64,000 nucleotides of DNA. Source: Candidatus Omnitrophota bacterium. GTDB lineage: Bacteria; Omnitrophota; Gorgyraeia; Zapsychrales; Zapsychraceae. This document shows, piece after piece, positions 3,046 through 36,423 of the stretch (the first letter of the stretch is position 1; each line of letters opens with the position of its first letter). A program made the translations under genes and the position numbers. The notes beneath the pieces are model-generated. The model was not told the origin of the DNA. It ran no database searches and worked only from the letters and a program-made list of their open reading frames with translations. The DNA is taken from positions 15,557-79,556 of the forward strand of contig JADFYJ010000012.1 of NCBI GenBank assembly GCA_015233115.1. The letters are read 5' to 3'.

Positions 3046-3047
3046 CC

Positions 3048-3095
3048 CATGGACCACCGCGTCGGTGGACCAAAGGCCCACCGACGCGGTGATTT
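3048..3095. terminator. Bidirectional intrinsic terminator between convergent genes
   Basis: Perfect inverted repeat caccgcgtcggtgg / ccaccgacgcggtg with an aaaggc loop, flanked by T/A runs, between the CvpA-like stop and the mnmE stop. Confidence 0.55.
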
Positions 3096-4497: not shown

Positions 4498-4600
4498 ACA
4501 TTAATCCTCAAAAAACCGATTATTTTTATTACGGGCGATCAGGAGATCGACCCTACGAAAAAAATCGCGTGCATGAAAATTAGGTTTGGATTTAAATCTA

Positions 4601-4648
4601 ATCCCCGAGCGAGTTTCCTTGGCGCTTCGCCAAGGTTGTTTGAGCGAA
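4601..4648. repeat. Conserved hairpin element, copy 1 (TCCCCGAGCGAGTTTCCTTGGCGCTTCGCCAAGGTTGTTTGAGCGAAG), embedded in a locus-specific inverted flank.
   Basis: Near-identical to 10634..10681. The stem differs by a compensatory pair (G..C here, C..G in copy 2). Flanks gatttaaatctaatcc / ggattaggtttaaata are inverted repeats. Confidence 0.6.
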
Positions 4649-4709
4649 GGATTAGGTTTAAATACAAACCGTCCCAACCCACGCGCTATATCAACCGCGG
4701 CATACTCCG

Positions 4710-6050
4710 CTACGATATTATTTTTCGCGCTTGCGCGACGAGAAAAACCGAACCAACCACGGCGGTTAATTCTACGTCTCGTCTTTCCCTAATATAATCT
4801 AAAGCATCAACCGTAAACTGAAAAAAACTTACGGGCAGACCAGGAAAATTTTGTTTTAATTCTTCTTTGGTAAACGTGTGCGCCCGCTCATGAAAACCGT
4901 TGACCACGATGACTTCCCGCGCCACAGGTTTTAACTGATCACAAATTCCTTGAATATCTTTGTCTGACGAAATTCCAAGAATAACCACGGGCTTTTTTCC
5001 AGGGAACGCGCGGTTTAAAGTTTTCACAAATTCATGAACGGATTCTTTAGTGTGACACACATCCAAAATAAATAGTTGCTTGCCGCTGATAATTTCAAAC
5101 CGTCCCGGCCAGCTTACTGCAGCGGCTCCTTGAAAAACGGCATCATTTGAAATTTTTACCCCTTGTCCTCGTAATCCCTCGACCACGCATAAAGCGGCTG
5201 TCAAGTTAGCCCCCTGACAATCACCCAGCAAAGGCATTCGCAGACCCGTAAATTTTTGAAGGCCAATCATCACATCAATATCCTGGCCGGACCATGAAAC
5301 CTTATTAATTTTATAACCGATTTCATGGCCTATTCTAAAAACGTTAGTTGCTTTGACTTCTTCAATTTTTTGACGGATCACATGCTCGACTTCAGGATAT
5401 TGTTCGGCGATAACAACAAATTTATTGGAAGGTTTTATAATGGCCGCTTTTTCATAAGCAATTTTGCCTAAAGTATCGCCTAATATTTGTGTGTGTTCCA
5501 GGCCGATCGGAGTAATGACAGCGGCCCAGGAATCAACCACATTGGTCGCGTCCAAGCGTCCGCCCAACCCGGTTTCCAACACGACCCAGTCGACCTGTTG
5601 TTCAAAAAAACATAAAAACGCCGCGATAGTCAGCCACTCAAAATAGGTTAACTGCTCCCTTAAGGTCTCATCAAGCGTATTTTTGATATGAAAAATAATA
5701 CGGGCAAAATCATCCCTTGCTATTTCATCGCCGAAAATGCCGTCGGGTGTTTGTTTTTGGTGTGATAGAATCCTCATTCGCTCACGCATATCGTATAAAT
5801 GAGGAGAAGTATACAGCCCGGTCTTAAAACCTGCCGCCTTTAACATAGCCGCGATCATGGCTGCGGTGGATCCTTTGCCTTTAGATCCGGCTATATGAAC
5901 GCATTTGAGATTCGCGTGGGGATTTCCTAATTTCTGCAGAGCTTCCCGGACAATATTAAGTTTAAAATCCGCCGAACGCGCCTTATTGAGCATCCGCTCG
6001 AAATTGACATGGTGGTCTAGAAAAGTAAGAGATTCGGAATAATTGAACAT
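4710..6050 (-). CDS. folC: Folylpolyglutamate synthase / dihydrofolate synthase (Mur ligase family)
   Basis: 446 aa. P-loop HIAGSKGKGSTAAM, Mur-ligase middle and C-terminal domains. Confidence 0.85.
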   Translation of the reverse strand: MFNYSESLTFLDHHVNFERMLNKARSADFKLNIVREALQKLGNPHANLKCVHIAGSKGKGSTAAMIAAMLKAAGFKTGLYTSPHLYDMRERMRILSHQKQTPDGIFGDEIARDDFARIIFHIKNTLDETLREQLTYFEWLTIAAFLCFFEQQVDWVVLETGLGGRLDATNVVDSWAAVITPIGLEHTQILGDTLGKIAYEKAAIIKPSNKFVVIAEQYPEVEHVIRQKIEEVKATNVFRIGHEIGYKINKVSWSGQDIDVMIGLQKFTGLRMPLLGDCQGANLTAALCVVEGLRGQGVKISNDAVFQGAAAVSWPGRFEIISGKQLFILDVCHTKESVHEFVKTLNRAFPGKKPVVILGISSDKDIQGICDQLKPVAREVIVVNGFHERAHTFTKEELKQNFPGLPVSFFQFTVDALDYIRERRDVELTAVVGSVFLVAQARKIIS

Positions 6051-6054
6051 TTTA

Positions 6055-7611
6055 TTAATGTTTAAAGTGTCTCGCGCCTGTCATAACCATGACCATGCCA
6101 TATTTATCCGCGGCCTGGATGACATCGGGATCCGCGATAGAACCGCCGGTTTGAATGATGGCAGTAATGCCGGCTTTCGCGGCCAATTGCACATTATCCG
6201 TTTTAGGCAAAAACGCGTCGGAAACCATAATTGCTCCTTTGGCTTCTTTGCCGGCTTTCCGGACAGCGATATTAACGCTTTCCACGCGGCTGGTTTGTCC
6301 GCACCCTATACCGAGAACGCGCTGGCCTTTCACTAAAATGATCGCATTAGATTTAACTCCACGGACCACTTTCCATCCAAACAGCATGGACGTCAGTTGT
6401 ATTTTGGTAGGCTTTTTCTTTGATACCACTTTCAAATCTTTAGCCGTAATCTCCAGCTCATCCTTATCCTGCAATAAAAGACCGCCATACACTTTTTTAA
6501 AATCAACGCCGCCGCGCTTTAATCCTTTTAAATCAAATTCAATCAAACGCACATTTTTTTTCTGGGTCAAAATTTCTAACGCTGTTTTAGAAAATGCCGG
6601 TGCAATCACGCATTCCATAAAACCGCTTTTGCTGATAAGCTTGGCTGTCGCTTCGTCAACTGGACGGTTGACTCCGATAATTCCGCCGAATGCTGAAACA
6701 GGATCAGGCGCCAAGGCTTGTTTATAAGCCAGAGACAATTTGGCGTTCTCAGCCAAACCCGTAGGATTATTGTGTTTGATAATAACGGCCGCGGGATTCG
6801 CAAAATCTTTGATAAAATCAACCGCCGCGTTTAAATCCAAAATATTGTTAAACGATAATTCCTTGCCGTGAAGCTGTTTCAAATTCGCTAACCCGGTGAC
6901 CGGCCCTTGATCTTTATAAAAAGCGGCTTTCTGGTGAGGGTTCTCGCCATAGCGTAAATCCTGGACTTTGGTAAAATCAAACGCGATTTTCGACGGTAAG
7001 GTTGCTTCTGAAATTTTGGCCTCCAACATGCGTTCCGACAAAAACGACGCGATCGCCGAATCATACGCGGCAGTCCGCGCATAAACTTCCTGAGCTAAAA
7101 TAAAGCGAGTCGAATCTGCTACCACTCCTTTATTTTGTTTTAATTCTGCTAATACAGATTCATAACGGTTGGGATTGCAAATGACTGTCACACTGCGGTA
7201 ATTTTTCGCGGCAGAACGCAGCATAGACGGCCCACCGATATCAATATTTTCAATCGCGTGTTCCAAGGCGATCTTTTTATCTTTAATAACCTCTTCAAAC
7301 GGATATAAATTCACAACCACCAAATCAATCAGTCCGATACCATGCGCCGCAACCTGGGACATATGTTCCGGGTTATCCCGCAAGGCCAAAAGCCCGCCAT
7401 GGATTTTTGGATGCAAGGTCTTAACCCGTCCGCTCAACATTTCCGGAAAACCCGTGTAATCAGAAACCTCGATAACAGAAATTCCCGCGGAACGCAAAGC
7501 TAATGCCGTGCCTCCGGTGGATAAAATTTCTACTCCCAATTCCCGCAAACCCTTTACAAACGGGACTAATCCTGTTTTGTCGGAAACACTGATCAATGCG
7601 CGCTTTATCAT
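6055..7611 (-). CDS. purH: Bifunctional AICAR transformylase / IMP cyclohydrolase
   Basis: 518 aa. MGS-like N-terminus (ALISVSDKTGL...STGGT) and an AICARFT C-terminal domain, conserved throughout. Confidence 0.9.
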   Translation of the reverse strand: MIKRALISVSDKTGLVPFVKGLRELGVEILSTGGTALALRSAGISVIEVSDYTGFPEMLSGRVKTLHPKIHGGLLALRDNPEHMSQVAAHGIGLIDLVVVNLYPFEEVIKDKKIALEHAIENIDIGGPSMLRSAAKNYRSVTVICNPNRYESVLAELKQNKGVVADSTRFILAQEVYARTAAYDSAIASFLSERMLEAKISEATLPSKIAFDFTKVQDLRYGENPHQKAAFYKDQGPVTGLANLKQLHGKELSFNNILDLNAAVDFIKDFANPAAVIIKHNNPTGLAENAKLSLAYKQALAPDPVSAFGGIIGVNRPVDEATAKLISKSGFMECVIAPAFSKTALEILTQKKNVRLIEFDLKGLKRGGVDFKKVYGGLLLQDKDELEITAKDLKVVSKKKPTKIQLTSMLFGWKVVRGVKSNAIILVKGQRVLGIGCGQTSRVESVNIAVRKAGKEAKGAIMVSDAFLPKTDNVQLAAKAGITAIIQTGGSIADPDVIQAADKYGMVMVMTGARHFKH

Positions 7612-7636
7612 AGGAACCTTTCAACTTAAAATTTTG

Positions 7637-7785
7637 TAAGTCACAAAGACACAAAGTCACAAGGTCACAAAGGCAAATAAAGATAAAAGAATTAAAAACT
7701 AAAAAATCAAATCATTCGCTTTTTTAGTTTTTTTTATAAAATTTTTCCTTTGTGACCTTGTGTCCTTGTGACGCTGTGACCTTGT
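7637..7785. repeat. Inverted arrays of a 9-nt periodic repeat (GTCACAARG family) bracketing a ~65-nt AT-rich core; likely purH promoter region.
   Basis: Left arm gtcacaaagacacaaagtcacaaggtcacaaagg (7640-7673). Right arm cctttgtgaccttgtgtccttgtgacgctgtgaccttg (7747-7785) is its imperfect reverse complement. Confidence 0.7.
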
Positions 7786-7796
7786 AAAAAATAAAA

Positions 7797-7827
7797 AAGG
7801 GGCAATAAAAATATATTGCCCCCAAAT
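7797..7827 (-). terminator. Intrinsic terminator downstream of rpsU
   Basis: ggggcaat / attgcccc stem with an 8-nt loop, followed on the minus strand by a U-run (ttttttatttttt). Confidence 0.5.
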
Positions 7828-7840
7828 TTACTTAAACACC

Positions 7841-7999
7841 TTAATGTTTTTTTGCTTTATGACGTTTTTTTTCTGACGGTTTAGAGTAAAAACGGCGTTC
7901 TTTTAACTCCATTAAAAAACCGTCTTTCATACAAGCTTTTTTAAAAAGGCGCATAGCCTTTTCAAAATTCAATGAATCATTAACTTTTACTTCAATCAC
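7841..7999 (-). CDS. rpsU: 30S ribosomal protein S21 (bS21), GTG start
   Basis: 52-aa frame, so absent from the >=60-aa ORF track. VIEVKVNDSLNFEKAMRLFKKACMKDGFLMELKERRFYSKPSEKKRHKAKKH matches the S21 consensus (ALRRFKk.C.K.G.l.E.rrR.fYEKPSE.rKR). SD AAGGTGGTGA upstream of the GTG at 7999. Confidence 0.75.
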   Translation of the reverse strand: MIEVKVNDSLNFEKAMRLFKKACMKDGFLMELKERRFYSKPSEKKRHKAKKH

Positions 8000-8073
8000 G
8001 CGAAATCACCACCTTAAGATATTATTTATTTTGTGACAATGTAACAGTGTAACAGTGTGACAATGATTAAAAA

Positions 8074-8376
8074 CTATATCGCGCTCGCGCCGGTTTGGCC
8101 ATCGCGGATGCGGATTATATTCGACATATCAATTACGGCGATTTTTCCGTCGCCGGTAACACCGGTCCGGGCATACTTGCGGATCGTCTCGACAATTTTA
8201 TCTACTTGAAATTCATCCGCGTAAATATCCAGCTTCATTTTTTCCTGAAGGCCGTTGCGATGATGCCCAAATCCTTTCGCTTCAGTCACAGTCAATCCGC
8301 CAATGCCTGAGTCTTCCAGAGCTCGGAATACTTCTTCGAATTTTTCTTTTCTAACGATCGCTTCGATCTTTTTCAT
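8074..8376 (-). CDS. Nitrogen regulatory protein P-II family
   Basis: 100 aa. MKKIEAIVR...GLTVTEAKGFGHHRNG...DGKIAVIDMSNIIRIRDG matches GlnB/GlnK signatures. No adjacent amt or glnA. Confidence 0.8.
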   Translation of the reverse strand: MKKIEAIVRKEKFEEVFRALEDSGIGGLTVTEAKGFGHHRNGLQEKMKLDIYADEFQVDKIVETIRKYARTGVTGDGKIAVIDMSNIIRIRDGQTGASAI

Positions 8377-8517
8377 AATAACGCCTCTTTTCTAACCCTT
8401 ACGCTTTTCACCAATCGCTTTTTCTTCCCTCATCCATCATTTCCGTACTCTGTACTCTCTACTCTATACTTCTTTTCCACGATTGGGTCGATATAGTAAC
8501 ACAAAGAAAAAATACGG

Positions 8518-9177
8518 TCAACGCTTTTTAAGTACCCCGGCCTGTTTACACCAAACATTCACCGGACACTGCGAGCACAGAGGCGAAACAGGTTTACAAA
8601 TATTTTGGCCCCACACGACTAGCAGGGTATTGTATTCAATCCAATATTGGGAGGGAAGTTTTTCACGCAGGGCAAATTCAGTTTCTTCCGGTGTCTTGGT
8701 TTTTACATAACCCAAACGGTTTGAAATGCGGTGCACATGCGTATCAACGCAAATCCCTAATTTTCCGAAACCTTCGGTTAAAACCAAATTCGCGGTTTTC
8801 CGGCCTACCCCGTTAAAAGAAAGCAAAACATCCAAATCATCCGGAACTTTTCCTTTGAATTCATCAATTAGCCGCCGGCAAATACCCAGAATATTTTTCG
8901 CTTTGGTGTGATAAAATCCTACCGGATAAATCGCCTTTTCAATCTGTTTAACGGTCAATTGGGCCATTGAAAAAGGATCTTTCGCTAATTGAAATAATCG
9001 TTCCGCAGCCGGCAGGGTCGTCGCATCCTGAGTCCGTAAACTTAAAATACAGGATATCCAGACTAAAAAGGGGTCATGCCATCTTTTTCCCACCAAAGTG
9101 ACTGACGGATCAGGAAAATCTTTTTCCGCCTTGCGAAGGGTTTTGATAATGAGGGTAATAATTTGATTTGTCAGCAT
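8518..9177 (-). CDS. nth: Endonuclease III (DNA-(apurinic/apyrimidinic) lyase)
   Basis: HhH-GPD domain (LSFNGVGRKTANLVL) and a C-terminal 4Fe-4S cluster CKPVSPLCSQCPVNVWC. The track's start at 9216 would make the first 13 codons out of the intergenic GTCACAARG repeat array, so the start is moved to the in-frame ATG at 9177 (MLTNQ...). Confidence 0.8.
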   Translation of the reverse strand: MLTNQIITLIIKTLRKAEKDFPDPSVTLVGKRWHDPFLVWISCILSLRTQDATTLPAAERLFQLAKDPFSMAQLTVKQIEKAIYPVGFYHTKAKNILGICRRLIDEFKGKVPDDLDVLLSFNGVGRKTANLVLTEGFGKLGICVDTHVHRISNRLGYVKTKTPEETEFALREKLPSQYWIEYNTLLVVWGQNICKPVSPLCSQCPVNVWCKQAGVLKKR

Positions 9178-9190
9178 ACTGATAAATTTT

Positions 9191-9370
9191 GTTAAGTCAC
9201 AAGGACACAAGGACACAATGTCACAAAGAATAAAAAAAATTAAAACAAAACACTCAATAAAATCATAAAATTAAATTATAAAAAAATTGCGATTTGTTTA
9301 TATTTCCCAAATCGCCATTTTATTTTTCTGATCCTTTGTGACCTTGTGACATGTGACTTTGTGACCTTGT
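9191..9370. repeat. Second locus of the GTCACAARG inverted repeat arrays around a ~100-nt AT-rich core (nth promoter region).
   Basis: Left arm gttaagtcacaaggacacaaggacacaatgtcacaaag. Right arm cctttgtgaccttgtgacatgtgactttgtgaccttgtc. Confidence 0.7.
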
Positions 9371-9373
9371 CTG

Positions 9374-10306
9374 TCAAGCCACACTCTTTAAATCATATCC
9401 CTGATCAGCCAAAGATGACAGGTCATCACGCCAATCTTTTTCCACTTTCACGAAACACTCCAGAAAAACTTTGGTTCCTAATAACTCTTCCAGTTCGATG
9501 CGTGCTTCCGTGCCGATTTTCTTCAGCAAACTGCCGCCTTTGCCAATGACTATTTCTTTTTGCGTTTCGCGTTCAACGATAATAAGCGCTTTAATGTGCG
9601 TGGTTTTGACCCGTTTCGGCTGGATGTGTTCGATCATGACCGCTAAAGAATGAGGCAGTTCATCGCGCATTTCATTAAATAATTTTTCCCGGATAATATC
9701 CGCGATAGCCCAGCGCTGGGGATAATCCGTGACGATATCTGCTGGATATAATGCCGGACCTTCTGGAAGAAGATCAAACACCAGTTCAATCAGTTTCTCC
9801 ACATTCGTCCCTTTTTCGCCGGACAAAGGCAAAAGCGTGATATTCGGCATGTCGCTCAAATTTTTACCCATAATTCTCTCAAAAAATTCAATATATTCGG
9901 GAATCCTCGCGCCTTTTTTGATGTCAATCTTATTCATGGCCAAAATAACCGGCCCCTTAACTTTTTTAATTTTTTCTGCCAGATATTCTTCTTCTTGACC
10001 GGTCTGCCGGGTCGTATCAACTAAATAGATTACCACATCCACGTCGGAAAAAGTGCCTTCCGAGGCCCGGTTCATATATTTATCCAGCTTATCCCGTCCG
10101 ATATGCAGACCCGGGGTATCAATAAAAACAATTTGGCCGCGTTCATCCGTTAATATGCCGCGGATTTGCTGGCGGGTCGTTTGCGGGATCTTAGAAACTA
10201 TCGAAACTTTCTCTTCGCATATACTGTTGAGCAATGTCGACTTGCCCGTATTCGGACGGCCTACGATTGAAACCATCCCGCATTTTATTTTTTTTTCTTC
10301 AGTCAT
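9374..10306 (-). CDS. era: GTPase Era
   Basis: G-domain (GRPNTGKSTLLN, DTPG, NKID) plus a C-terminal KH domain. Start taken at ATG 10306 (MTEEKK, SD GGAAGTGGGGA), which forms an ATGA overlap with the upstream stop. Confidence 0.85.
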   Translation of the reverse strand: MTEEKKIKCGMVSIVGRPNTGKSTLLNSICEEKVSIVSKIPQTTRQQIRGILTDERGQIVFIDTPGLHIGRDKLDKYMNRASEGTFSDVDVVIYLVDTTRQTGQEEEYLAEKIKKVKGPVILAMNKIDIKKGARIPEYIEFFERIMGKNLSDMPNITLLPLSGEKGTNVEKLIELVFDLLPEGPALYPADIVTDYPQRWAIADIIREKLFNEMRDELPHSLAVMIEHIQPKRVKTTHIKALIIVERETQKEIVIGKGGSLLKKIGTEARIELEELLGTKVFLECFVKVEKDWRDDLSSLADQGYDLKSVA

Positions 10307-10569
10307 TTTCCCCACTTCCTATATTTTAATGTTGCAATAACAACGAACGTAAAAAATATCACATTCATGTAATTATATGTCCGCCAAACCATATCCGGAG
10401 AACGGAAACCCGCCGGAGCCATAAGAATAATACAGCCCCAAATCCCCAACGCCCACATCAGGCTAATATCTTCAGACGATTTCCGCTGGAACATTTTAAT
10501 AATCAACGGAATATTAAATAGAGGCATAGCCACTGCCGCGACAAAACCCATTTTTTCTATAAAATCCAT
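10303..10569 (-). CDS. PQ-loop / SemiSWEET-like small sugar transporter (3 TM)
   Basis: 88 aa, three hydrophobic helices, and a PQ-loop-like MPLFNIPLIIKMFQRKSSEDIS motif. Confidence 0.5.
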   Translation of the reverse strand: MDFIEKMGFVAAVAMPLFNIPLIIKMFQRKSSEDISLMWALGIWGCIILMAPAGFRSPDMVWRTYNYMNVIFFTFVVIATLKYRKWGK

Positions 10570-10633
10570 GCTTGCCCCCTTTTAATTAAACCTAAAGTTA
10601 CATTTAAAATTTTGCGAAATTGGCTTTTGTGTA

Positions 10634-10681
10634 TTCCCGAGCGAGTTTCCTTGCCGCTTCGGCAAGGTTGTTTGAGCGAAG
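10634..10681. repeat. Conserved hairpin element, copy 2 (TTCCCGAGCGAGTTTCCTTGCCGCTTCGGCAAGGTTGTTTGAGCGAAG).
   Basis: Matches copy 1 at 4601..4648 except for the compensatory G/C swap in the stem. Flanked by inverted repeats cttttgtgtatt / aatatacaaaag. Confidence 0.6.
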
Positions 10682-10723
10682 AATATACAAAAGTTAAATT
10701 CGTAAAATTTTACTTCTGCCAAT

Positions 10724-11626: not shown

Positions 11627-11730
11627 AAATAATCCTTTTCGCTTTGTTTGAATATCTTCGGTTGATGGTTTTTAGTTTTTGGTCAATGATCTCGTAATCA
11701 ATCGCTTTTCTCAGTTACTCTGTTATTCGC

Positions 11731-14418: not shown

Positions 14419-14599
14419 AGTGACCGAGTAACAGAGTAACCGAGTAACAAAGAAAAAGCTTAAAAACCAAAATGAAACAAAAAAATAATTAAAAAACACA
14501 AACAATAAAATCTCTAATTTTTTTACATTTAAATTCTTTATCGTCAATCGTTTTTCTCTGTCACTCGGTTACTCGGTTACTCGGTTACTTTGTTACTTG
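14419..14599. repeat. Inverted arrays of a 9-nt periodic repeat (GTAACCGAG family) bracketing a ~100-nt AT-rich core.
   Basis: Left arm tagtgaccgagtaacagagtaaccgagtaacaaag. Right arm ctctgtcactcggttactcggttactcggttactttgttacttg. Confidence 0.7.
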
Positions 14600-17068: not shown

Positions 17069-17193
17069 TTAAACCCCTATATTGCGTTATTCAAAGTTTT
17101 TGTTTGACTCCCGACGCATCGTTATGCATGCTCCGGCTTGGGTTTAACCCCGCAGGTTTGATTAAATCTCGGCAAGATTTAATCATGCGGTGG

Positions 17194-17685: not shown

Positions 17686-17811
17686 GAATTCTCCCTTACA
17701 CTTTATTTATATTTCAATTTAAAACAAAATCTATAAAAAATTAATATATTTTTAACAAACAGGCAAATAGTTATAAAAGGCGATAGGCCATAGACGATAG
17801 GTTTAAAAAAA

Positions 17812-18144: not shown

Positions 18145-18407
18145 GTAACGTATGTAGCATGTAGTATGTGGTATGTAGTAAAAAAATAAAATCCAAAAAC
18201 GAAAACAGCAAAAACAATACAGCTTAAAGATTTTTAAAAGATGAAATGTAGCACGCAAAAACTAAAATGTAAAATAAAAATTTTTATCTAAAAATATCAA
18301 AAAATATATTTAATTTTTTTAAAACAGGAAGCCCCGTAAATTACCGCTACGCCTTTTAAACCAATCAATTTTTTTACCACATACCACCTGCCACATACGA
18401 CATACTA
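18145..18407. repeat. Inverted arrays of an 8-nt periodic repeat (ATGTAGYA family) bracketing a ~195-nt AT-rich core.
   Basis: Left arm ttgtaacgtatgtagcatgtagtatgtggtatgtagta. Right arm ccacataccacctgccacatacgacatacta is its imperfect reverse complement. Confidence 0.65.
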
Positions 18408-22466: not shown

Positions 22467-25397
22467 TCAAAGACCCATAATCGGCAAAGGGCTTTGGATC
22501 GGGATGATCCGAAGAATTATTCCCTCAACGCCGGTAAAATTGCCTTTTTGAAATTCCGCGACCATAGCCGGGTCAACCGTCATTTGAACGCCTTTGCCTT
22601 CCTTGGAAATATCCAGACCCATATTCTTGGCGTTTAAATCAATACCCCCGTTCACCATCGCTTCATCGCCTTTCGCTGCCGCTTTATTCACAAACCGCAC
22701 AGACGATTCAGAGCTCCAAGTTTGGCCTGATTTTATTTTTACCAAATCCGCGTCAATGCCATGGAAATCCAAATACAACGCGCTCGGCGATGCGGGGATG
22801 CTTTGCCAGCTCATGGTATTTTCTAAACCAGCCATGCCAACTGGAATCCACAGCATACCGTTTTTCTCTTCCCGGCTAGGCTTAAATTGCATAATCTCAC
22901 CCGTTACATTATTTCTGAATTCCGCGACGACACCATCATTAACGTCAAAATCCAAATCTGTAAAAGGAATTTCAATCGATTCTTTTAAATCTTTTAAAGA
23001 AACCCAGTCATTAAAGTCCTGAGCCTGACCAATATTCTCAGCCGGCTGCAATAATGGTATTTTGTTTTTTGGATCGAGCTTCCAATATTTCTTCGCCTTA
23101 ACCCTGACTGACCAGTCATTGCGATCTGTCTTTGTTTTTTCATCTTTAGCGTCAAAAAATCCATGCAAGCCGCCGCTCCACGGAATAATTTGATCCTCTT
23201 CTACAACTGCGGGATTTAATTTTCCTTTGTTCTCAACTTCCCATTTATAATCATAACCGGATTCGGTCACCCAAAAAGTAAAAGTCACTTTGGCCTCACC
23301 AAAAACATCATTCTTTAAATCTTTATATTGCGGCAAAGTCGTGTCCACCGACATCTTGATAAAAGAACCCTTCGCGTCTTTGCCCTGTTCATCAATAGTC
23401 CAAAGCAAATTAACTTGCGAAAGGCCGTGCAAACCATGTTCAACTCCGTCGGAATCAGCCCAGGAACGGATTAAAGGATTACTTTTGAAATCCGCGGTCT
23501 TGGTTGTATGTAAAGTTTTAAATTGCGCAATTTTGTTAGGCAAACGGCCGGTCCAAAAAGCCATGAGCGGAATCCCCTTGCCCGGCACCAACCGTTCTTT
23601 GCCATTGATGATCAAAGATTCAATTTTTCCGTTTAAAGGATTTACAACAGAGGAATTCCCGGAATTTTGGTCCATAATCGTAATAGGTGTTTTTTGTATC
23701 CTAGCGGCGTCAGGCTGGTGAGATTGCGACACGTTATCAACTATCATGGCCATATCAATAATTTTTCCTTGTAAAAATTCAGCTAACTCATTATCACCTT
23801 TACCCGCATCGACCATTTCTAAAATAGTTTGTCGGATATTGGTCTCGCCCAATCTTTTCAAAATATTAAAAAAATCCTGATAATCAATTCTTTCAAAAAC
23901 TAATAAATTTCTCACTCTCCCGTTTATTTCCCGAGATGCCAAACCAAGAACGTGCGCCTCAGAACCATCACCCTTTATAATCTTACTTATTTCGTATCCA
24001 CGTATTTCTGAATGAGAAAAATCATCCCAAGGTAAACTAACTCCCTTTTGAGTTCTTTCGCCTTTATATTGACGCACGGCATTTCTTAAAAAAATTGTTT
24101 CAGTTTCTTGAAAAATGGCTTGGACTTCTTCGATCACGTTTGTATAAATAAATATATTTCCAACCATAAAACGATCATTATCTAATCCATGAATTAATCG
24201 ATTAGCATCATAAAAATTATAAAAATGTACAAATTTATGAAGTAATGTTTGTAAATTATTGTTATTAGCATAAAAGTTTTCCCAATAACGGTCATTCATA
24301 TCAAAAACATGTACTGGCGAATCCGCGCGGGAAGAATCCTTTTCCTTCACCAAAAAACTAATAAAATTCAACCATGCCATAAAATTATTTAAATCACTTT
24401 TTTTTCTATTTCTATTTCCATAAAATTTAGCTAATTTTTTATTTAAAGCATTTATCTTTAAATCCGTTAGCGTATTATATTTTTTTCCTTTATTGCTAGA
24501 ATCTCCAATGAGAGCGTTATCTATTATCGCTGCGCCAGGTAAGCCGTTGACCTTTGCCATATTTGTCTGGACCATAGCCATATCGCCAACCGCGGACATT
24601 GCTACTTTGTCTGACGGCGTTGCGATCTGCGCGCGGTCGAGAATTTTTGGGATGCCCATATCCGGAGCCAGCCCGCCGGAAAAATATTTGCGCGGGACGA
24701 TTTGCTGGCTGGATGCGTCGTATTCTTCCTTAATATAGTCAAACGTGCCTTTTTTAAATGACTGCAGATATTGATTATAAATTTTTTCTTTGACTGCCGG
24801 ATCATTGGACAAAACGCCGCTGGTCTTCCCTTTATTACTATAGACCTGATTTAACAACGCGTCTTTAAGCGCGAGCTTGTACCATGTAGCCAGGATCATG
24901 GAATAAAACATTTGACGCAATTGCGCGAAATGCTCACCCTGGTTCACTTCTTTTTCGATTTCGGGAATGATAATTTCTTTAATTATAGAAGTTAGAGGAT
25001 AGACGGGAGACGATAGATCAGAAGCGATTGATGCTGTTGTTTTGTTTTTTGTTGCTTGTCTATCTTCTATCTTCTCTTTTCTATTTTCTTGTGCCGCTAA
25101 ATAATCCTGCTCCAAAAGCACTTTCAAATGCGCGCCGACTACGTAGGCGGCATTATTTCTTTCCAGCACTTTGGCTTTGTCAGCGACGATCCAAACTTTG
25201 TTAAAAGTATCTGTGGGGATGTCAAAACCCCTCACCCTGCCCTCTCCCCGGAGGGGAGAGGAAGCGTAGATTTTACTATAAACGCGTTCCCAAAACTTCT
25301 TACCTAATTCTTTTTCTGGATACATGAGCGAGGCGGTTAATTGCTTGAAGATATAATCCTGCGCCAGCATGTCGCGGCCTAACTCAGTCTTGCCCAA
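22467..25397 (-). CDS. Large hypothetical protein (976 aa); probably the body of a secreted protein whose signal-peptide exon is ORF 25409..25783
   Basis: Long frame starting at TTG with no SD. No recognisable catalytic motif. The N-terminal part carries an in-frame GC-rich hairpin element at 25241-25261 encoding PLRGEGRVRG. Confidence 0.5.
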   Translation of the reverse strand: MGKTELGRDMLAQDYIFKQLTASLMYPEKELGKKFWERVYSKIYASSPLRGEGRVRGFDIPTDTFNKVWIVADKAKVLERNNAAYVVGAHLKVLLEQDYLAAQENRKEKIEDRQATKNKTTASIASDLSSPVYPLTSIIKEIIIPEIEKEVNQGEHFAQLRQMFYSMILATWYKLALKDALLNQVYSNKGKTSGVLSNDPAVKEKIYNQYLQSFKKGTFDYIKEEYDASSQQIVPRKYFSGGLAPDMGIPKILDRAQIATPSDKVAMSAVGDMAMVQTNMAKVNGLPGAAIIDNALIGDSSNKGKKYNTLTDLKINALNKKLAKFYGNRNRKKSDLNNFMAWLNFISFLVKEKDSSRADSPVHVFDMNDRYWENFYANNNNLQTLLHKFVHFYNFYDANRLIHGLDNDRFMVGNIFIYTNVIEEVQAIFQETETIFLRNAVRQYKGERTQKGVSLPWDDFSHSEIRGYEISKIIKGDGSEAHVLGLASREINGRVRNLLVFERIDYQDFFNILKRLGETNIRQTILEMVDAGKGDNELAEFLQGKIIDMAMIVDNVSQSHQPDAARIQKTPITIMDQNSGNSSVVNPLNGKIESLIINGKERLVPGKGIPLMAFWTGRLPNKIAQFKTLHTTKTADFKSNPLIRSWADSDGVEHGLHGLSQVNLLWTIDEQGKDAKGSFIKMSVDTTLPQYKDLKNDVFGEAKVTFTFWVTESGYDYKWEVENKGKLNPAVVEEDQIIPWSGGLHGFFDAKDEKTKTDRNDWSVRVKAKKYWKLDPKNKIPLLQPAENIGQAQDFNDWVSLKDLKESIEIPFTDLDFDVNDGVVAEFRNNVTGEIMQFKPSREEKNGMLWIPVGMAGLENTMSWQSIPASPSALYLDFHGIDADLVKIKSGQTWSSESSVRFVNKAAAKGDEAMVNGGIDLNAKNMGLDISKEGKGVQMTVDPAMVAEFQKGNFTGVEGIILRIIPIQSPLPIMGL

Positions 25398-28627: not shown

Positions 28628-28962
28628 GCGACTAGATTGCCTTCGGCTTCGCCTGCGGATTGATTGCTTTTCTAAACTTACGTTTTGGAAGCAATCAATA
28701 GAACTCGCAAAATCCTACGGATTTTTGCGAAGCAATCTGTGGGCCAGCACCAAATATAAAAGCCCCCTCTCAAAAGAGGGGTAACATTTGAATTTTAACT
28801 CGATTTCGACTCGATTACCTTCGGCTTCGCCTGCGGATTGATTGCTTTTCTAAACTTACGTTTTGGAAGCAATCAATAGAACTCGCAAAATCCTACGGAT
28901 TTTTGCGAAGCAATCTGTGGGCCAGCACCAAATATAAAAGCCCCCTCTCAAAAGAGGGGGCT
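28628..28962. repeat. Perfect tandem duplication (period 178 nt; ~156-nt unit plus 22-nt spacer) of a hairpin-rich element, each unit ending in a terminator-like hairpin.
   Basis: Units 28628-28783 and 28806-28961 are identical over ~145 nt (ccttcggcttcgcctgcggattgattgcttt...gccccctctcaaaagagggg). Internal 11-bp stem gattgattgctt/aagcaatcaat and stem cgcaaaatcc/ggatttttgcg. Confidence 0.7.
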
Positions 28963-28971
28963 TTTATATTT
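28931..28971. terminator. Bidirectional intrinsic terminator after tRNA-Asp
   Basis: gccccctc-tcaaaa-gagggggc stem-loop with U-runs on both strands (ttttatattt), immediately 3' of the tRNA-Asp CCA end. Confidence 0.6.
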
Positions 28972-29048
28972 GGCGGACCCGACGAGATTTGAACTCGCGA
29001 TCTCAAGCGTGACAAGCTTGCATGTTAACCAGACTACACCACGGGTCC
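28971..29048 (-). tRNA. tRNA-Asp (anticodon GTC), CCA encoded
   Basis: Cloverleaf folded by hand: acceptor GGACCCG/CGGGTCC, anticodon stem CAAGC/GCTTG with loop TTGTCAC, T-loop TTCAAAT. 78 nt. Confidence 0.85.
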
Positions 29049-29075: not shown

Positions 29076-29148
29076 TGGGCGGTGCTGGGCTCGAACCAAC
29101 GGCCGCCTGAATGTAAGTCAGGAGCTCTACCAACTGAGCTAACCGCCC
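29076..29148 (-). tRNA. tRNA-Val (anticodon TAC), CCA not encoded
   Basis: Acceptor GGGCGGT/ACCGCCC, D-arm GCTC-AGTTGGTA-GAGC, anticodon stem CCTGA/TCAGG with loop CTTACAT, T-loop TTCGAGC. 73 nt. Confidence 0.85.
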
Positions 29149-30627: not shown

Positions 30628-30640
30628 CAGATTTTCCCCT

Positions 30641-30686
30641 CATCCCTGCTCACGCAGGACCCCTTCTCCCCAGAGGGGAGAAGAAA
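30641..30686. repeat. GC-rich hairpin element (CCCCTCATCCCTGC...CTTCTCCCC-AGA-GGGGAGAAG) in the pyrD-pyrF spacer
   Basis: 9-bp perfect stem with a 3-nt loop plus an inner cctgc/gcagg hairpin. A close relative lies in-frame inside CDS 22467..25397 at 25226-25261. Confidence 0.55.
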
Positions 30687-30709
30687 TATCTTATATTTAT
30701 ATTTTATTC

Positions 30710-32394: not shown

Positions 32395-33209
32395 TTCTCA
32401 CAATAAAACGTACTGCGCTGGGCTTGGACTATTTTCTTAATGAGTTGGCCGCATTTCAGACACGGCTTCCCACCCCGTCCGTAAACTTTCAGACGTCCGG
32501 CGAATTGGCCGTGTTCGCCTGACGCGTCGCGGTAATTCCGCAGGGTTGTCCCCCGATGCAAAACCGCGTATTCCAAAATTTTCTTAACCGCCTTTACCAG
32601 CAAGCTGATTTGCGCCGGCTTTAAAGAACAAGCCGTTGTCCGCGGATCAATTTTCGCCTCAAACAAAATCTCCGACGCGTAAATGTTTCCGATCCCTGCC
32701 ACAAATTTCCCGTCCATTAATAAAACTTTAACCGCGATCCGCCGTCCGGCAATATTTTTTTCAACATAATCTTTATTAAAATCTGCCAATAACGGCTCAG
32801 GGCCCAAAGATCGAAAATATTTTACTTCATCTAAACTCCCGGCTAAACGTATCCGTCCGAACATGCGCTGATCATTATAAATTAACTTCGCGCCATTAGA
32901 AAGCTTAAATATAACTTTGGCAAATTTTACATCATCCCCATCTTGAGCATTTTCCCGCGCTGGAACCAAAACTAACTGTCCGGTCATACCCAGCTGAATG
33001 ATCAAAAATAATTTATCCAGTTCAAATACCAGCGCTTTACCTCGCCGGTAAATATTTAAAATGTGTAATTTTTTTAATCGGTAAGATAATTGTGCGGAAG
33101 TCATTCCACCGCAAACTCTTTGTTCATTGACCTGCACAGATACAATGGTCTGCCCAACAATTTTCCGCAAATCCCGCGCGATCGTCTCTACTTCAGGAAG
33201 TTCTGGCAT
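32379..33209 (-). CDS. mutM: Formamidopyrimidine-DNA glycosylase (Fpg/MutM)
   Basis: Real start at ATG 33209 (MPELPEVETIARDL, SD AGGGGA). C-terminal zinc finger CLKCGQ...CEKCQ. The track start 33341 is an upstream extension. Confidence 0.8.
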   Translation of the reverse strand: MPELPEVETIARDLRKIVGQTIVSVQVNEQRVCGGMTSAQLSYRLKKLHILNIYRRGKALVFELDKLFLIIQLGMTGQLVLVPARENAQDGDDVKFAKVIFKLSNGAKLIYNDQRMFGRIRLAGSLDEVKYFRSLGPEPLLADFNKDYVEKNIAGRRIAVKVLLMDGKFVAGIGNIYASEILFEAKIDPRTTACSLKPAQISLLVKAVKKILEYAVLHRGTTLRNYRDASGEHGQFAGRLKVYGRGGKPCLKCGQLIKKIVQAQRSTFYCEKCQIL

Positions 33210-33290
33210 GTTCTGTCCCCTATAAAAAGCTTCTAATCTTATATGACCAATATAATGTAGCAGTGTAACAATGTGACAATGCCAAGAACA

Positions 33291-33490: not shown

Positions 33491-34771
33491 TTACTCTACG
33501 TTATATACCACATTTCCGCCGCAAATAGTGGCTAAAACTAGTCCTTTTAATGTCTTCCCTATAAAAGGAGAGTTTTTTGATTTGGACGCAAAACCCGCCG
33601 CTTTCACCTGCCACGGAGCCTCGGAATCAAAAACCGTTAAATCCGCGTCCATGCCTTCAGCTATTTTGCCTTTAGCAGAAAGGCCGGTTATTTTTGCCGG
33701 AGATGCGGACATTTTGTCAATCAGCTGGGGTAACGTTAAAATTTTAGCGTCTACCAACTCAGTAATTCCCAGCCCAAACGCGGTTTCCAGGCCAATCATG
33801 CCTGAAGGAGCCTGATCGAAATCCAATTCTTTTTCCTCCTGGCTATGCGGGGCATGATCAGTCGCTATACAATCTATTGTCCCATCTTTTAATCCGCGCT
33901 TAATCTCAGCCACATCTTCTTCCGAACGCAGAGGCGGTTTGACTTTCAAATTCGTGTTAAAAGATCTGATCTCTTTTTCCGTCAATGAAAAATGATGCGG
34001 ACACGCTTCCGCTGAAACTTTCACGCCATCCGTTTTCGCGCGGCGGATCAATTCAACTGAACGCTTGGTGCTCACATGCGCGAAATGAATACGGCAATCC
34101 AAATAATGCGCCAGCTCTATATCCCGGCTGATAATGGTGGTTTCCGACACTGCCGGATCGCCTTTCATGCCCAACAATGTAGAAAAATAGCCTTCATTGA
34201 CTACTCCCGTTTTACTGAGCAAAGGATCTTCACAATGCTCAGAAATCAAAATACCAACCATCTGACTGTATTGCAAAGCCATACGCATTAAGTGCGAATT
34301 ATGAACTGATTTCCCATCGTCAGATAACATCAGGCAGCCCGCCCTGCGCATTTCAAACATATCGGTTAATTCTTCATCCTGCTGTCCTTTGGTGATAGCG
34401 CCAACTGGGTAAACATTTACCAGCCCAACCCGCTTGCCTTCTCTAATGATAAAATCCACCAAAGCGATATTATCAATCGGGGGCTTGGTATTCGGCATGC
34501 AAAATACCGACGTAAACCCGCCTTTAGCCGCTGCCGCGGAACCGGTTTCAATGGTCTCTTTGTATTCCTGCCCGGGCTGACGGAAATGAGCGTGAAGATC
34601 TATGAAGCCAGGAGAAACGAATTTCCCCTTGGCATCAATAATGTCGGCCCCATCACTCTTTAAGTTTTCACCGATTTTTACAATTTTCCCGTCTTGAATC
34701 AGTATATCTTTAATCCGGTCATCTATCCCATCAGAGTTGACTATTTTCGCGTTTTTGATTAACAACATCAT
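33491..34771 (-). CDS. pyrC: Dihydroorotase
   Basis: 426 aa. Amidohydrolase metal-binding motif DLHAHFRQPG and the DHOase family. Confidence 0.85.
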   Translation of the reverse strand: MMLLIKNAKIVNSDGIDDRIKDILIQDGKIVKIGENLKSDGADIIDAKGKFVSPGFIDLHAHFRQPGQEYKETIETGSAAAAKGGFTSVFCMPNTKPPIDNIALVDFIIREGKRVGLVNVYPVGAITKGQQDEELTDMFEMRRAGCLMLSDDGKSVHNSHLMRMALQYSQMVGILISEHCEDPLLSKTGVVNEGYFSTLLGMKGDPAVSETTIISRDIELAHYLDCRIHFAHVSTKRSVELIRRAKTDGVKVSAEACPHHFSLTEKEIRSFNTNLKVKPPLRSEEDVAEIKRGLKDGTIDCIATDHAPHSQEEKELDFDQAPSGMIGLETAFGLGITELVDAKILTLPQLIDKMSASPAKITGLSAKGKIAEGMDADLTVFDSEAPWQVKAAGFASKSKNSPFIGKTLKGLVLATICGGNVVYNVE

Positions 34772-34811
34772 TTAAAATCCTTTCTGCGTTCTACTCTATA
34801 CTCTGTACTTT

Positions 34812-35738
34812 TTACTCCTTAGCCCCTAACGCCAGATATAATACCGCCATGCGTACAGCTACGCCGTTGGTGACTTGTTCTAAAATTAATGATTGCGGGC
34901 CGTCAGCTACGTCGGAGGAAATTTCTATGCCGCGGTTCATGGGGCCGGGATGCATGATGAGAAGCTCTTTTTTCCCTTTTTTCAATCTTTCCGCATTTAC
35001 ACCGAACTCCATCGCGTATTCTCTAATCGAAGGAAAATAATTTTCTTTTTGCCTTTCTTTTTGAATACGCAGGAGCATTAAGACATCGCTGCGTTTAATC
35101 ACTTCCTCAACGCTATAGCAAACCTTGGCTCCTAATTTTTCAATTCCAAACGGGATCAAAGTTGACGGTCCGCATACCGTGACTTCCACGCCCATTTTCG
35201 TCAAGCCCACCACATTGGAACGGGCCACGCGCGAATGCATGATGTCGCCGACAATTCCCACTTTTATCCCTTCCAGCTTGCCTAATTTTTCTTTAATGGT
35301 AAACATATCCAGAAGAGCCTGCGTTGGATGAGACCGGCAGCCGTCTCCCGCGTTAATAATAGACGATTTTAAATTGTTAGCCAATATCTGCGGCACGCCT
35401 GATGACCCATGCCGCACCACAATCGCGTCCACATTCATGGCTTCCACATTCCGCGCCGTATCTAAAATCGTTTCGCCTTTAGACATCGAGCTAGAACTGA
35501 CCGCGATATTAATCGTGTCCGCGGAAAGCCGCTTGGCTGCCAGCTCAAAAGATGTCCGAGTTCTCGTAGACGGTTCAAAAAATAGCATCACCACAGTTTT
35601 ACCCCTTAAAGCCGGCACTTTTTTAACATCCCGCGAAGACACTTCCTTAAATGATTTGGCTGTATCCAAGACCTGCTGAATTTCCTCTTTGGTCAACTCT
35701 TCTACATCCAGTAAATGACGTTTATTCCATTCCACCAT
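34812..35738 (-). CDS. pyrB: Aspartate carbamoyltransferase catalytic subunit
   Basis: 308 aa. STRTR carbamoyl-phosphate binding motif and an HPGP-type aspartate-binding motif. Confidence 0.9.
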   Translation of the reverse strand: MVEWNKRHLLDVEELTKEEIQQVLDTAKSFKEVSSRDVKKVPALRGKTVVMLFFEPSTRTRTSFELAAKRLSADTINIAVSSSSMSKGETILDTARNVEAMNVDAIVVRHGSSGVPQILANNLKSSIINAGDGCRSHPTQALLDMFTIKEKLGKLEGIKVGIVGDIMHSRVARSNVVGLTKMGVEVTVCGPSTLIPFGIEKLGAKVCYSVEEVIKRSDVLMLLRIQKERQKENYFPSIREYAMEFGVNAERLKKGKKELLIMHPGPMNRGIEISSDVADGPQSLILEQVTNGVAVRMAVLYLALGAKE

Positions 35739-35739
35739 A

Positions 35740-36400
<661 letters not shown>

Positions 36401-36423
36401 AAAAGTTAAACTTCACTTTTAAA

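Follow-up and report, generated by a model that had tools for sequence, protein, structure and literature searches.

Inverted arrays of 7- and 8-nt tandem repeats around AT-rich palindromic centres as recent intergenic insertions in a Candidatus Omnitrophota genome

Correia/ERIC and REPIN/BIME elements are non-coding bacterial sequences of 100–200 bp that form long hairpins, reside in intergenic DNA, and are co-transcribed with neighbouring genes. REP units are 20- to 40-bp GC-rich palindromes tagged with GTAG/CGTC, and BIME-1/RIP elements carry an IHF site in the linker. Short tandem arrays have been described separately, namely the long simple sequence repeats (LSSRs) with units of 5–11 nt (Mrazek 2007) and the short tandemly repeated repetitive (STRR) heptamers of cyanobacteria (Mazel 1990), as far as they are summarized in PMC4679880 and PMC4692102. 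In marine Beggiatoaceae, the heptamer TAACTGA has been proposed to be a binding site for a translational regulator (PMC4679880). The closest published description to the elements reported here is that of the intergenic GGGAATC heptamer arrays of Xanthomonas, which form 70–75 convergent inverted pairs per genome and whose function is unknown (Rehm et al. 2015, PMC4692102). Here we describe paired inverted arrays ('brackets') in a 64-kb stretch (the window; contig JADFYJ010000012.1) of the metagenome-assembled genome (MAG) of a Candidatus Omnitrophota bacterium, starting from bracket B1, which lies upstream of purH. The window is the part of the genome that was examined, and all counts given below refer to it. 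The PurH and aminotransferase that it encodes have 100% matches annotated as proteins of a Candidatus Omnitrophota MAG, encoded on an 81.5-kb contig.

B1 occupies positions 7629–7785 of the 229-nt spacer between rpsU and purH and is located between the rpsU terminator and the purH ribosome-binding site. Its parts and its upstream boundary are as follows (features without an assigned strand are given by coordinates only).

7629–7639: gene-proximal flank (AAATTTTGTAA), part of the inserted segment; conserved with 9184–9195 of a second bracket, B2, and absent from the rpsU–purH spacer of the nearest relative (the sister genome)
7640–7674: gene-proximal arm, 4.4 copies of the octamer GTCACAAR with the variant GACACAAR; plus strand, G-TCACAAAG-ACACAAAG-TCACAAGG-TCACAAAG-GC
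7675–7747: core, 73 nt, 86% A+T, an A-rich half followed by a T-rich half; self-palindromic
7748–7785: distal arm, 4.5 octamer copies in inverted orientation; plus strand, CTTTGTGA-CCTTGTGT-CCTTGTGA-CGCTGTGA-CCTTGT
7823–7798, minus strand: intrinsic terminator of rpsU, with a stem of 10 bp and a T-run behind it; the sister locus (L014) has this hairpin as well

The arms at 7640–7674 and 7748–7785 are imperfect reverse complements (91% complementarity over 23 nt), as a first-pass annotation of the locus had noted, but the 9-nt period given there is wrong. Tandem Repeats Finder returned a period of 8 for both arms (4.4 and 4.5 copies with 85 and 78% matches, respectively), and the self-match of the arms reached 0.77–0.81 at lag 8 vs. 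0.27–0.28, the background level, at lag 9; the unit is therefore an octamer. Overall, lag-8 self-match ranged from 0.66 to 0.90. The intervening core is A/T rich, as had been described, and is 73 nt long rather than 65 nt. Complementarity continues into this core (75% over 59-nt arms lying 23 nt apart), and 7629–7785 is therefore a single long imperfect palindrome and not a pair of arrays placed around an unrelated core. The stem stops short of the purH start: the 28 nt preceding the ATG, among them the GAAAGG ribosome-binding site, are not part of it. The rpsU terminator likewise lies outside the element and is the conserved upstream boundary of the insertion.

The derived state of the brackets is evident from the comparison with the sister genome (GCA_015233195.1; loci L014 and L016), which is syntenic and encodes 83% identical PurH and 84% identical aminotransferase proteins, and with outgroup loci of ∼70% identity (L015, L017, and L018). 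The rpsU–purH spacer measures 229 nt in the window vs. 65 nt in the sister, where it comprises, in this order, the terminator, TTTTTTCTTTC, and GAAAGGTTCAT-ATG. The window retains the sister's terminator and GAAAGGTTCCT-ATG with ∼160 nt, i.e. the bracket, inserted between them, and the terminator and GAAAGGTTC-ATG are conserved on either side of the insertion. The asnC stop codon and the aminotransferase start codon, with bracket B3 between them, are 193 nt apart in the window; the distance is 2 nt in the sister (L016; TAA-at-ATG), 12 nt in L017, and 72 nt in L018. At bracket B5, two pilZ genes are separated by 103 nt in the window, whereas a single nucleotide separates them in the sister and 5 nt do so in L015. 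Two unpaired arrays, at 2161 and 17778, also lie within extra sequence specific to the window. Because the B1, B3, and B5 junctions are short in the sister and outgroups, these brackets are recent, lineage-specific, derived insertions. The first-pass annotation called the motif genome-specific, and its lineage specificity is borne out by the orthologous junctions, whereas the view of the element as a purH regulatory region is not: the closest relative has no such element before purH, and B1 is therefore not a conserved purH control region.

The bracket architecture is, however, not unique to this genome. In the distant Omnitrophota chromosome CP070837 (L001), the purH stop codon is followed by (TAGTATC)x4, an AT core, an inverted array, and then the ATG of the next gene, which was read by eye as folE from its translated N-terminus. 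The purH–folC junction, which is 4 nt long in the window, is filled in L015 by a 127-nt palindrome composed of ∼7-nt units. The same architecture at other junctions in other Omnitrophota, together with the empty sites, indicates that brackets are derived and have been gained independently at different junctions in different lineages, with a burst in the lineage of the window. Per 10 kb, the window contains 2.5 arrays (∼4 if only its first 36 kb are counted) and nine related or control loci contain 0–1.5; the single match in the sister is a coding repeat. Outside this group, a scan of IMG/VR for CACAAGGTCACAAAGG returned 38 matches, all in unrelated coding-like sequence, including a collagen-like repeat, and a protein search with the array-encoded (VTRSQGHK)n yielded only spurious open reading frames (ORFs), two of the contigs concerned being of marine Tara Oceans origin. 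A long (GGTYACAA)n array of ∼15 octamer units, (GGTTACAA/GGTCACAA)n, i.e. the same unit as in the window arms, was also seen at 4760–4880 of a Tara Oceans marine contig (L059) with one called gene in 5 kb; this array is unrelated to the present organism, and its context is possibly eukaryotic.

The recurrence of the repeat upstream of nth, which had also been reported previously, was confirmed: the arms of B2 (9196–9228 and 9334–9370) are built from the same GTCACAAR unit family as those of B1.

9184–9228: B2 gene-proximal flank and arm (arm, 9196–9228), 18 nt upstream of the nth ATG (9177)
9229–9333: B2 AT-rich core, 105 nt, 82% A+T
9334–9370: B2 distal arm, beginning 3 nt past the era stop codon

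BLAST of intergenic against intergenic sequences aligned 7629–7672 with 9184–9228 at 89% identity over 45 nt, and the gene-proximal arm plus flank of the two brackets are identical at 40 of 47 positions (85%). Complementarity between the arms within each element is lower than this (78% in B1 and 69% in B2 over 44–48 nt). The two brackets also have in common the GACAC variant unit and, beyond the array, an 11-nt flank, AAATTTTGT(T)AAG, that the sister spacer lacks. As the identity of arm and flank exceeds the within-element complementarity and both the variant and the flank are shared, B1 and B2 are homologous copies of a pre-formed element and not two independent local expansions. These arrays also mislead ORF calling: the longest nth ORF begins at a GTG inside the B2 array (MSLCPCDL...; 9178–9216), and spurious 33-aa ORFs with peptides of the type ...VT(R/K)SQGHK... 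cross the arrays (9178–9216 and 7724–7825).

A census of arrays with a period of 7 or 8, at least three copies, and at least two G/C per unit identified 16 arrays in the window, whereas 30 dinucleotide shuffles contained a mean of 0.13; the arrays are thus non-random. After correction of over-extended ORF starts, 15 of the 16 are located in the 8.7% of the window that is non-coding. Thirteen are wholly non-coding, and another overlaps coding sequence only at the end of pyrB. A further array is included in an ORF through an over-extended longest-ORF start (the true fpg start is at 33209), and one (25059–25089) lies inside an ORF. This periodicity scan upholds the earlier description of the repeat as a non-coding feature recurring in intergenic DNA. 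GTCACAARG with up to one mismatch occurs 30 times vs. 16 ± 4 in shuffled sequence, and 16 of the 30 matches are in the two brackets themselves. The three remaining brackets and about seven solo arrays, identified with Tandem Repeats Finder and by reading each intergenic region directly, are listed below.

14420–14597: B3, filling the junction between the asnC-family and aminotransferase genes; arms 14420–14449 and 14560–14597, octamers GAGTAACC and GTNACNNN; core 110 nt, 81% A+T
18150–18405: B4, upstream of a tRNA-binding-domain gene; heptamer arms 18150–18180 (GTATGTA) and 18375–18405 (TACCACA/TACATAC); AT-rich core of 194 nt
1650–1731: B5, between two PilZ genes; heptamer arms 1650–1697 (TTGATGG/TTCTTGG, ∼7 units) and 1710–1731 (∼3 units)
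8030–8062: solo octamer array TGTRACAN in the spacer that separates rpsU from the P-II gene; homologous to 33254–33281
33254–33281: solo octamer array between a terminator-like hairpin with T-run (read by eye) and the fpg/mutM start (33209); 93% identical to 8038–8065 over 28 nt in the intergenic BLAST
8445–8470: solo heptamer array GTACTCT in the spacer that separates the P-II gene from nth; same family as 34792–34817
34792–34817: solo heptamer array of the GTACTCT family at the pyrB–pyrC junction; 34790–34802 matches 8458–8470 in the intergenic BLAST
2161–2190: solo heptamer array CTATKGC in a divergent intergenic region; same family as 17778–17801, inverted, and absent from the orthologous sister spacer
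17778–17801: solo heptamer array ATAGGCG/ATAGGCC inside a ∼62-nt insertion relative to the sister; 17777–17793 matches 2191–2175, inverted, in the intergenic BLAST
11645–11725: mixed degenerate case, with TTGATGG-family and GAGTAAC-family units side by side and non-inverted in one intergenic region (read by eye)

Five of the six intergenic regions holding two arrays contain inverted pairs of the same family, and pairing is therefore a property of the elements and not a coincidence. The unit families (GTCACAAR, GAGTAACC, TTGATGG, CTATGGC, GTACTCT, and GTATGTA) contain no G-runs. Besides the family of B1 and B2, four unit families, those of the solo arrays among them, recur at loci up to 25 kb apart within the window, as detected by intergenic BLAST. 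When the three octamer brackets are aligned, GTNAC recurs without variation at 8-nt intervals and the ends, both inner and outer, are similar, which suggests that the octamer brackets form one diverging superfamily. The arrays also contain higher-order periods of 14, 15, and 16 nt (14 nt in 1650–1697); the GACAC variant unit is one register off between the two arms of B1, and the arms of B5 are asymmetric (∼7 vs. ∼3 units). These three features reflect continuing tandem duplication and deletion by slippage within individual copies.

All genes near B1 are encoded on the minus strand.

6055–7611, minus strand: purH (NCBIfam equivalog, 711 bits)
7841–7999, minus strand: rpsU
8074–8376, minus strand: P-II gene
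8518–9177, minus strand: nth-like glycosylase gene
9374–10315, minus strand: era

Every spacer containing a bracket is predicted to fold as one hairpin, which begins 1–12 nt past the stop codon, or immediately behind the rpsU terminator in the case of B1, and ends 3–26 nt before the start codon. The predicted folding energies are ∼4–10 standard deviations below those of shuffled sequences (z −4 to −10). The sense strand is somewhat more stable than the antisense strand (−61 vs. −54.4 and −55.9 vs. −45.6 kcal/mol), and the DNA fold of B1 has an energy of −35.4 kcal/mol (z −8.2). The bracket centres contain 77–86% A+T and the arms 50–65%. The long RNA stem suggested in the first-pass annotation is thus present in the predicted fold, but it does not enclose the 5′ untranslated region (UTR), as the stem holds the AT core only. 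In a wobble test of the sense strands of eight brackets, 15 G·U and 14 A·C mismatches were counted, i.e. no excess of G·U, and no compensatory pattern was found between B1 and B2. Pairing of bracket RNA shows no signature of selection; because the sample is small and the elements are young, this is an absence of evidence and not proof.

We give about an even chance to the explanation that B1 is one copy of a lineage-specific, dispersed family of intergenic palindromic repeats, consisting of LSSR-type arrays in inverted pairs and resembling MITEs (miniature inverted-repeat transposable elements) or REPINs. Each element comprises two inverted arms of 3–7 tandem 7- or 8-nt units around a palindromic centre that is A-rich and then T-rich, and the whole insert can fold into one long hairpin (as RNA or single-stranded DNA) or a cruciform. 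Such elements may have entered AT-rich gene junctions either as non-autonomous DNA of the MITE/REPIN kind or through ectopic copying, would subsequently evolve by slippage, and may be tolerated because each folds back on itself. An effect on purH or nth, if there is one, would then be exerted through nucleic-acid structure and not through a sequence-specific regulator; candidate effects are the provision of read-through hairpins for RNase III-type processing, mRNA stabilization, and cruciform extrusion. Several observations weigh against this explanation. No clear target-site duplication was found at any bracket in comparison with the empty sites of the sister, where A/T-run flanks and the arm ends (…AC) blur the boundary. 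No transposase or RAYT was detected among the scanned ORFs of the window, a set from which several short ORFs and most of a giant ORF (described below) were left out. Apart from low-complexity similarity, the AT-rich cores of B1 and B2 cannot be aligned, these two brackets are only 1.5 kb apart, such that local ectopic duplication is possible for that pair, and the copy number is known only within 64 kb of the genome. The occurrence of several unit families with one architecture is also awkward for a single transposase recognizing sequence-specific terminal inverted repeats.

The first-pass annotation favoured regulator sites, which, in iteron- or CRP/FNR-like fashion, would flank a promoter located in the AT core and govern the expression of purH, nth, and further genes. 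The position of the arrays 10–30 nt upstream of start codons, the usual place of promoters and operators, and the invariant GTNAC every 8 nt of the octamer brackets are consistent with this idea, as are two weak minus-strand promoter-like sites in the B4 core and a GTSAC-TWA-YAAAAT-WTT motif, resembling a −10 box on inspection, that is shared by the gene-proximal ends. However, no sigma-70-like −35/−10 pair (16–18 nt apart) is present on the minus strand in 7612–7840 or in the cores of B2 and B3, a negative that weighs little because host promoter rules may differ, and the purH promoter formerly placed in the AT core therefore has no counterpart of this type on the purH strand. Matches to the CRP-type site TGTGA-N6-TCACA with up to one mismatch numbered two in the window vs. 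1.1 expected, neither of them near an array; the TGTGA/TCACA half-sites of the arrays, in which a likeness to CRP/FNR sites had been seen, are direct repeats at 8-nt spacing with the inverted partner >70 nt away. With this 8-bp spacing, neighbouring sites would not share a face of the helix, GTNAC shows no enrichment outside the arrays (129 occurrences vs. 114 ± 10 expected, with ∼31 inside arrays), and the target genes are unrelated housekeeping genes. The strongest arguments against a dedicated regulator are the existence of several (at least five) unrelated unit families and the absence of the element upstream of the same genes in close relatives. A single cognate repeat-binding regulator, which the first-pass annotation suggested looking for, is likewise argued against by the differing units of the brackets at 14.4, 18.2, and 1.65 kb. 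In short, the arrays look like hairpin-forming repeat elements and not like CRP-type regulator sites, and we regard control by such a regulator as very improbable.

A functional RNA hairpin is a different proposal, in which the arms would pair as a 30- to 40-bp stem in read-through or polycistronic mRNA, and RNase III-type cleavage or an exonuclease block would set cistron expression or stability, by analogy with the experimentally studied tandem-heptamer arm of an RNase III-cleaved 5′-UTR hairpin (PMC12721329). The very stable sense folds, somewhat more stable than the antisense folds, the span of the hairpins from just past a stop codon to just before a start codon, and the location of all window brackets between co-directional genes fit this proposal; the near-equal numbers of G·U and A·C over the eight brackets (15 vs. 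14), the lack of a B1–B2 compensatory pattern, the position of B1 downstream of a canonical terminator, and the lack of any Rfam family match do not, and the elements are missing from the sister and are thus not needed for ancestral expression. It appears unlikely. As an AT-rich centre flanked by inverted arms richer in G+C is the arrangement that most easily extrudes cruciforms under negative supercoiling, the brackets might instead serve as supercoil sinks or insulators between transcription units, analogous to gyrase- or IHF-binding BIMEs. The B1 DNA fold, the A+T contrast between centre and arms, the mismatch types without strand asymmetry, and the location between transcription units, after a terminator (B1) or a terminator read by eye (33254), would suit such a topological device. 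Arms that are only 69–78% complementary disfavour stable cruciforms, though, no core contains the IHF consensus WATCAANNNNTTR, and solo arrays cannot form cruciforms; we consider this role highly improbable. Growth in place without mobility, whereby local slippage and intrastrand template switching (quasi-palindrome correction or extension) would mirror one arm onto the other, is unlikely. The 14- and 16-nt higher-order periods, the strongly unequal arms of B5, the register shift of the GACAC variant between the B1 arms, and the failure to find a target-site duplication or transposase all agree with it, as does a second class of inserts (see below), whose conserved 46-nt core and locus-specific arms fit outward extension of a palindrome. 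Moreover, heptamers make up the commonest class of long simple sequence repeats in bacterial genomes, a class that has been ascribed to slippage of the polymerase (Mrazek 2007, cited in PMC4679880). On the other hand, separate loci carry the same unit families with the same variants and even the same 11-nt flank, several ancestral junctions of 1–2 nt offered no seed to grow from, and on inspection of these junctions the units did not visibly resemble the coding sequence on either side.

The brackets may be 'self-excluding' insertions, although we regard this idea as quite improbable. In a compact genome with overlapping or 1- to 2-nt junctions, only inserts that fold into one hairpin spanning from stop to start might survive. 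Such ancestral junctions imply translational coupling; the fold would hold the upstream stop codon and a start codon without a Shine–Dalgarno sequence within ∼15–30 nt of one another in the mRNA, and termination–reinitiation coupling would be preserved, much as if bacterial ribosomes were shunted across the hairpin. As a related possibility, an active palindrome-building process (slippage plus template switching) may make the inserts de novo, which would also explain the second insert class with its conserved core and locus-specific complementary arms.

This second class of palindromic inserts has a conserved 46-nt core at 4604–4649 and 10636–10681, within full hairpins at ∼4583–4670 and 10605–10712. 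The core, CCGAGCGAGTTTCCTTG[G/C]CGCTTCG[C/G]CAAGGTTGTTTGAGCGAAG, is 96% identical between the two copies, and its central hairpin contains one compensatory G-C/C-G swap. The outer arms of ∼30 nt are complementary within a copy and unrelated between copies, the plus-strand folds have energies of −44.5 and −52.1 kcal/mol (z −6.6 and −10.4), and the junctions concerned overlap or measure 10 nt in relatives. No Rfam match was obtained for these inserts. Because of this class, the growth-in-place process stays in play beside the dispersed-family explanation.

Further known categories were tried on the brackets. The ZTP riboswitch commonly precedes purH, and an Rfam search (cmscan, E ≤ 1) of 1–37000 detected nothing, including this riboswitch, at B1 or B2; B3 gave a far sub-threshold match to a plant microRNA precursor (30 bits vs. 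a cut-off of 135). A shared end motif, TACAAAATTTT, has three exact matches, two of them beside arrays, but it is AT-rich and of low complexity (136 matches vs. 107 expected at up to two mismatches) and is a hint only. GTNAC was rejected as a methylation or restriction motif, as it is neither enriched nor avoided on the counts given above. Integron attC sites were rejected because the arms, on inspection, depart from RYYYAAC/GTTRRRY and are flanked by syntenic housekeeping genes, and the iterons of plasmid or chromosomal origins because the loci are too numerous and lie between housekeeping genes and the units are only 8 bp long.

If a dispersed family is indeed involved, this MAG captures a recent burst of hairpin-forming repeat elements invading the tight junctions of a small Omnitrophota genome. 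It would then offer a natural experiment on the birth and spread of short tandem repeats and palindromes in bacteria, on the tolerance of operons to 100- to 200-nt structured inserts between formerly coupled cistrons, and on the later co-option of such inserts for processing, stability, or promoter functions. In annotation, arrays of this kind should be taken neither for conserved regulatory regions nor for binding sites of transcription factors, and ORF callers are misled by them.

Several other features of the window were recorded. A giant ORF of >9164 aa (36495–63989, minus strand) runs off the window end; giant genes are a known oddity of Omnitrophota. The C-terminal-most 2999 aa of this ORF in the window (36495–45494) gave a weak NTP_transf_3 match (26.3 bits vs. 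a cut-off of 27). A PyrR-binding-site-like RNA (36298–36409, minus strand; 49.6 bits vs. a gathering score of 54) lies directly upstream of a phosphoribosyltransferase (pyrR-like) gene, which is followed by pyrB and pyrC (33491–36297), and is probably a genuine pyr attenuator. At 28629–28959, a 178-nt unit is repeated 1.9 times with 98% identity and adjoins tRNA-Asp (28971–29048) and tRNA-Val (29076–29148) genes. Each copy ends in a hairpin and T-run (by eye), and a sub-threshold Thr_leader match (38 bits vs. a cut-off of 55) overlaps one copy; the repeat could be a duplicated tRNA-flanking segment or an integration scar. A GC-rich hairpin motif of the type CTCCCC-N-GAGGGGAGA is present in two copies (25236–25272 and 30640–30690), the former of which is apparently translated in the 976-aa ORF (22467–25397) that harbours the only in-ORF heptamer array (25059–25089). 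Between a CxxCxxCC-domain gene and an LPG-synthase-C gene, a 125-nt insert (17069–17193) contains several small hairpins without a tandem array; in the sister, the stop and start codons at this junction are directly adjacent (TAG-ATG). The converging colicin-V-like and mnmE genes are separated by a GC-rich palindrome, CCACCGCGTCGGTGG ... CCACCGACGCGGTG (3046–3093), which probably serves as a bidirectional terminator; at this site, the palindrome of the sister is a different one.

A full-text literature search connected tandem repeats with Omnitrophota in only two papers, of which the one listed mentions each term once and concerns lake microbial communities. Among the described systems, the bacterial MITEs, REPINs, and BIMEs, as far as excerpts of PMC3116915, PMC3184786, and PMC3733652 describe them, are likewise non-coding, hairpin-forming, and intergenic and vary in presence between relatives. 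As in MITEs, the brackets have terminal inverted repeats (69–78% over 44–48 nt and 91% over 23 nt); in addition, B1, B3, B5, and the 17778 array are missing from syntenic junctions of the sister. Within the 64 kb, the arms plus flank of B1 and B2 are 85–89% identical, but the cores are not conserved between copies, a difference from the systems described in those excerpts. Also unlike those systems, the arms are tandem arrays of octamers or heptamers in place of unique terminal inverted repeats or GC-rich REP hairpins; they lack the GTAG/CGTC tag of REP units, and no IHF site matching WATCAANNNNTTR is found in the cores. No clear target-site duplication was seen, nor a transposase or RAYT in the scanned ORFs of the window.

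The arrays taken singly resemble LSSRs and STRRs, which, according to the summaries in PMC4679880 and PMC4692102, are over-represented and mostly intergenic, are dominated by heptamers, and have a sporadic phylogenetic distribution and slippage as their proposed origin. The window arrays are likewise head-to-tail 7- and 8-nt units in 3–7 copies, beyond chance expectation and predominantly intergenic. LSSRs and STRRs, as summarized there, are direct arrays, however, and inverted pairing around an AT core is not part of their definition. The TAACTGA repeats of Beggiatoaceae occur as 2–6 heptamer copies a few nucleotides upstream of start codons, often without a Shine–Dalgarno sequence (MacGregor 2015, PMC4679880), a position comparable to that of the arrays at nth, the aminotransferase gene, and pilZ in the window, but they consist of one unit genome-wide, with a single indirect repeat among 170 sets. 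In the 5′ UTR of Haemophilus influenzae hmw1A, a tandem heptamer array, (ATCTTTC)n, forms one arm of a long hairpin upstream of the gene, and the RNase III-cleaved hairpin is one experimentally dissected way in which such a structure acts (PMC12721329). There, however, the other arm is G-rich and contains no repeat, the locus encodes a phase-variable adhesin, and the hairpin is a conserved regulatory device, whereas the present elements are dispersed insertions.

The Xanthomonas GGGAATC arrays (PMC4692102) come closest to the brackets: the short arrays mostly comprise ∼4 units of 7 nt, ∼90% are intergenic, and two nearby arrays in opposite orientation can form a stem-loop or cruciform, with length and presence varying between related species. 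Arrays of the same unit on opposite strands of one intergenic region, as in Xanthomonas, make up the five brackets of the window. In Xanthomonas, a single unit that is G-rich and quadruplex-capable is used genome-wide, whereas the window has at least five families of 7 and 8 nt that are not G-rich, and the elements of the window differ further in their AT-rich palindromic core, their span from stop to start codon, and their insertion into formerly tight operon junctions. The combination of several non-G-rich 7- and 8-nt unit families, an AT palindromic centre, stop-to-start geometry, and comparative evidence of recent insertion into operon junctions that formerly measured 1–2 nt sets the brackets of this Omnitrophota genome apart from the known systems.

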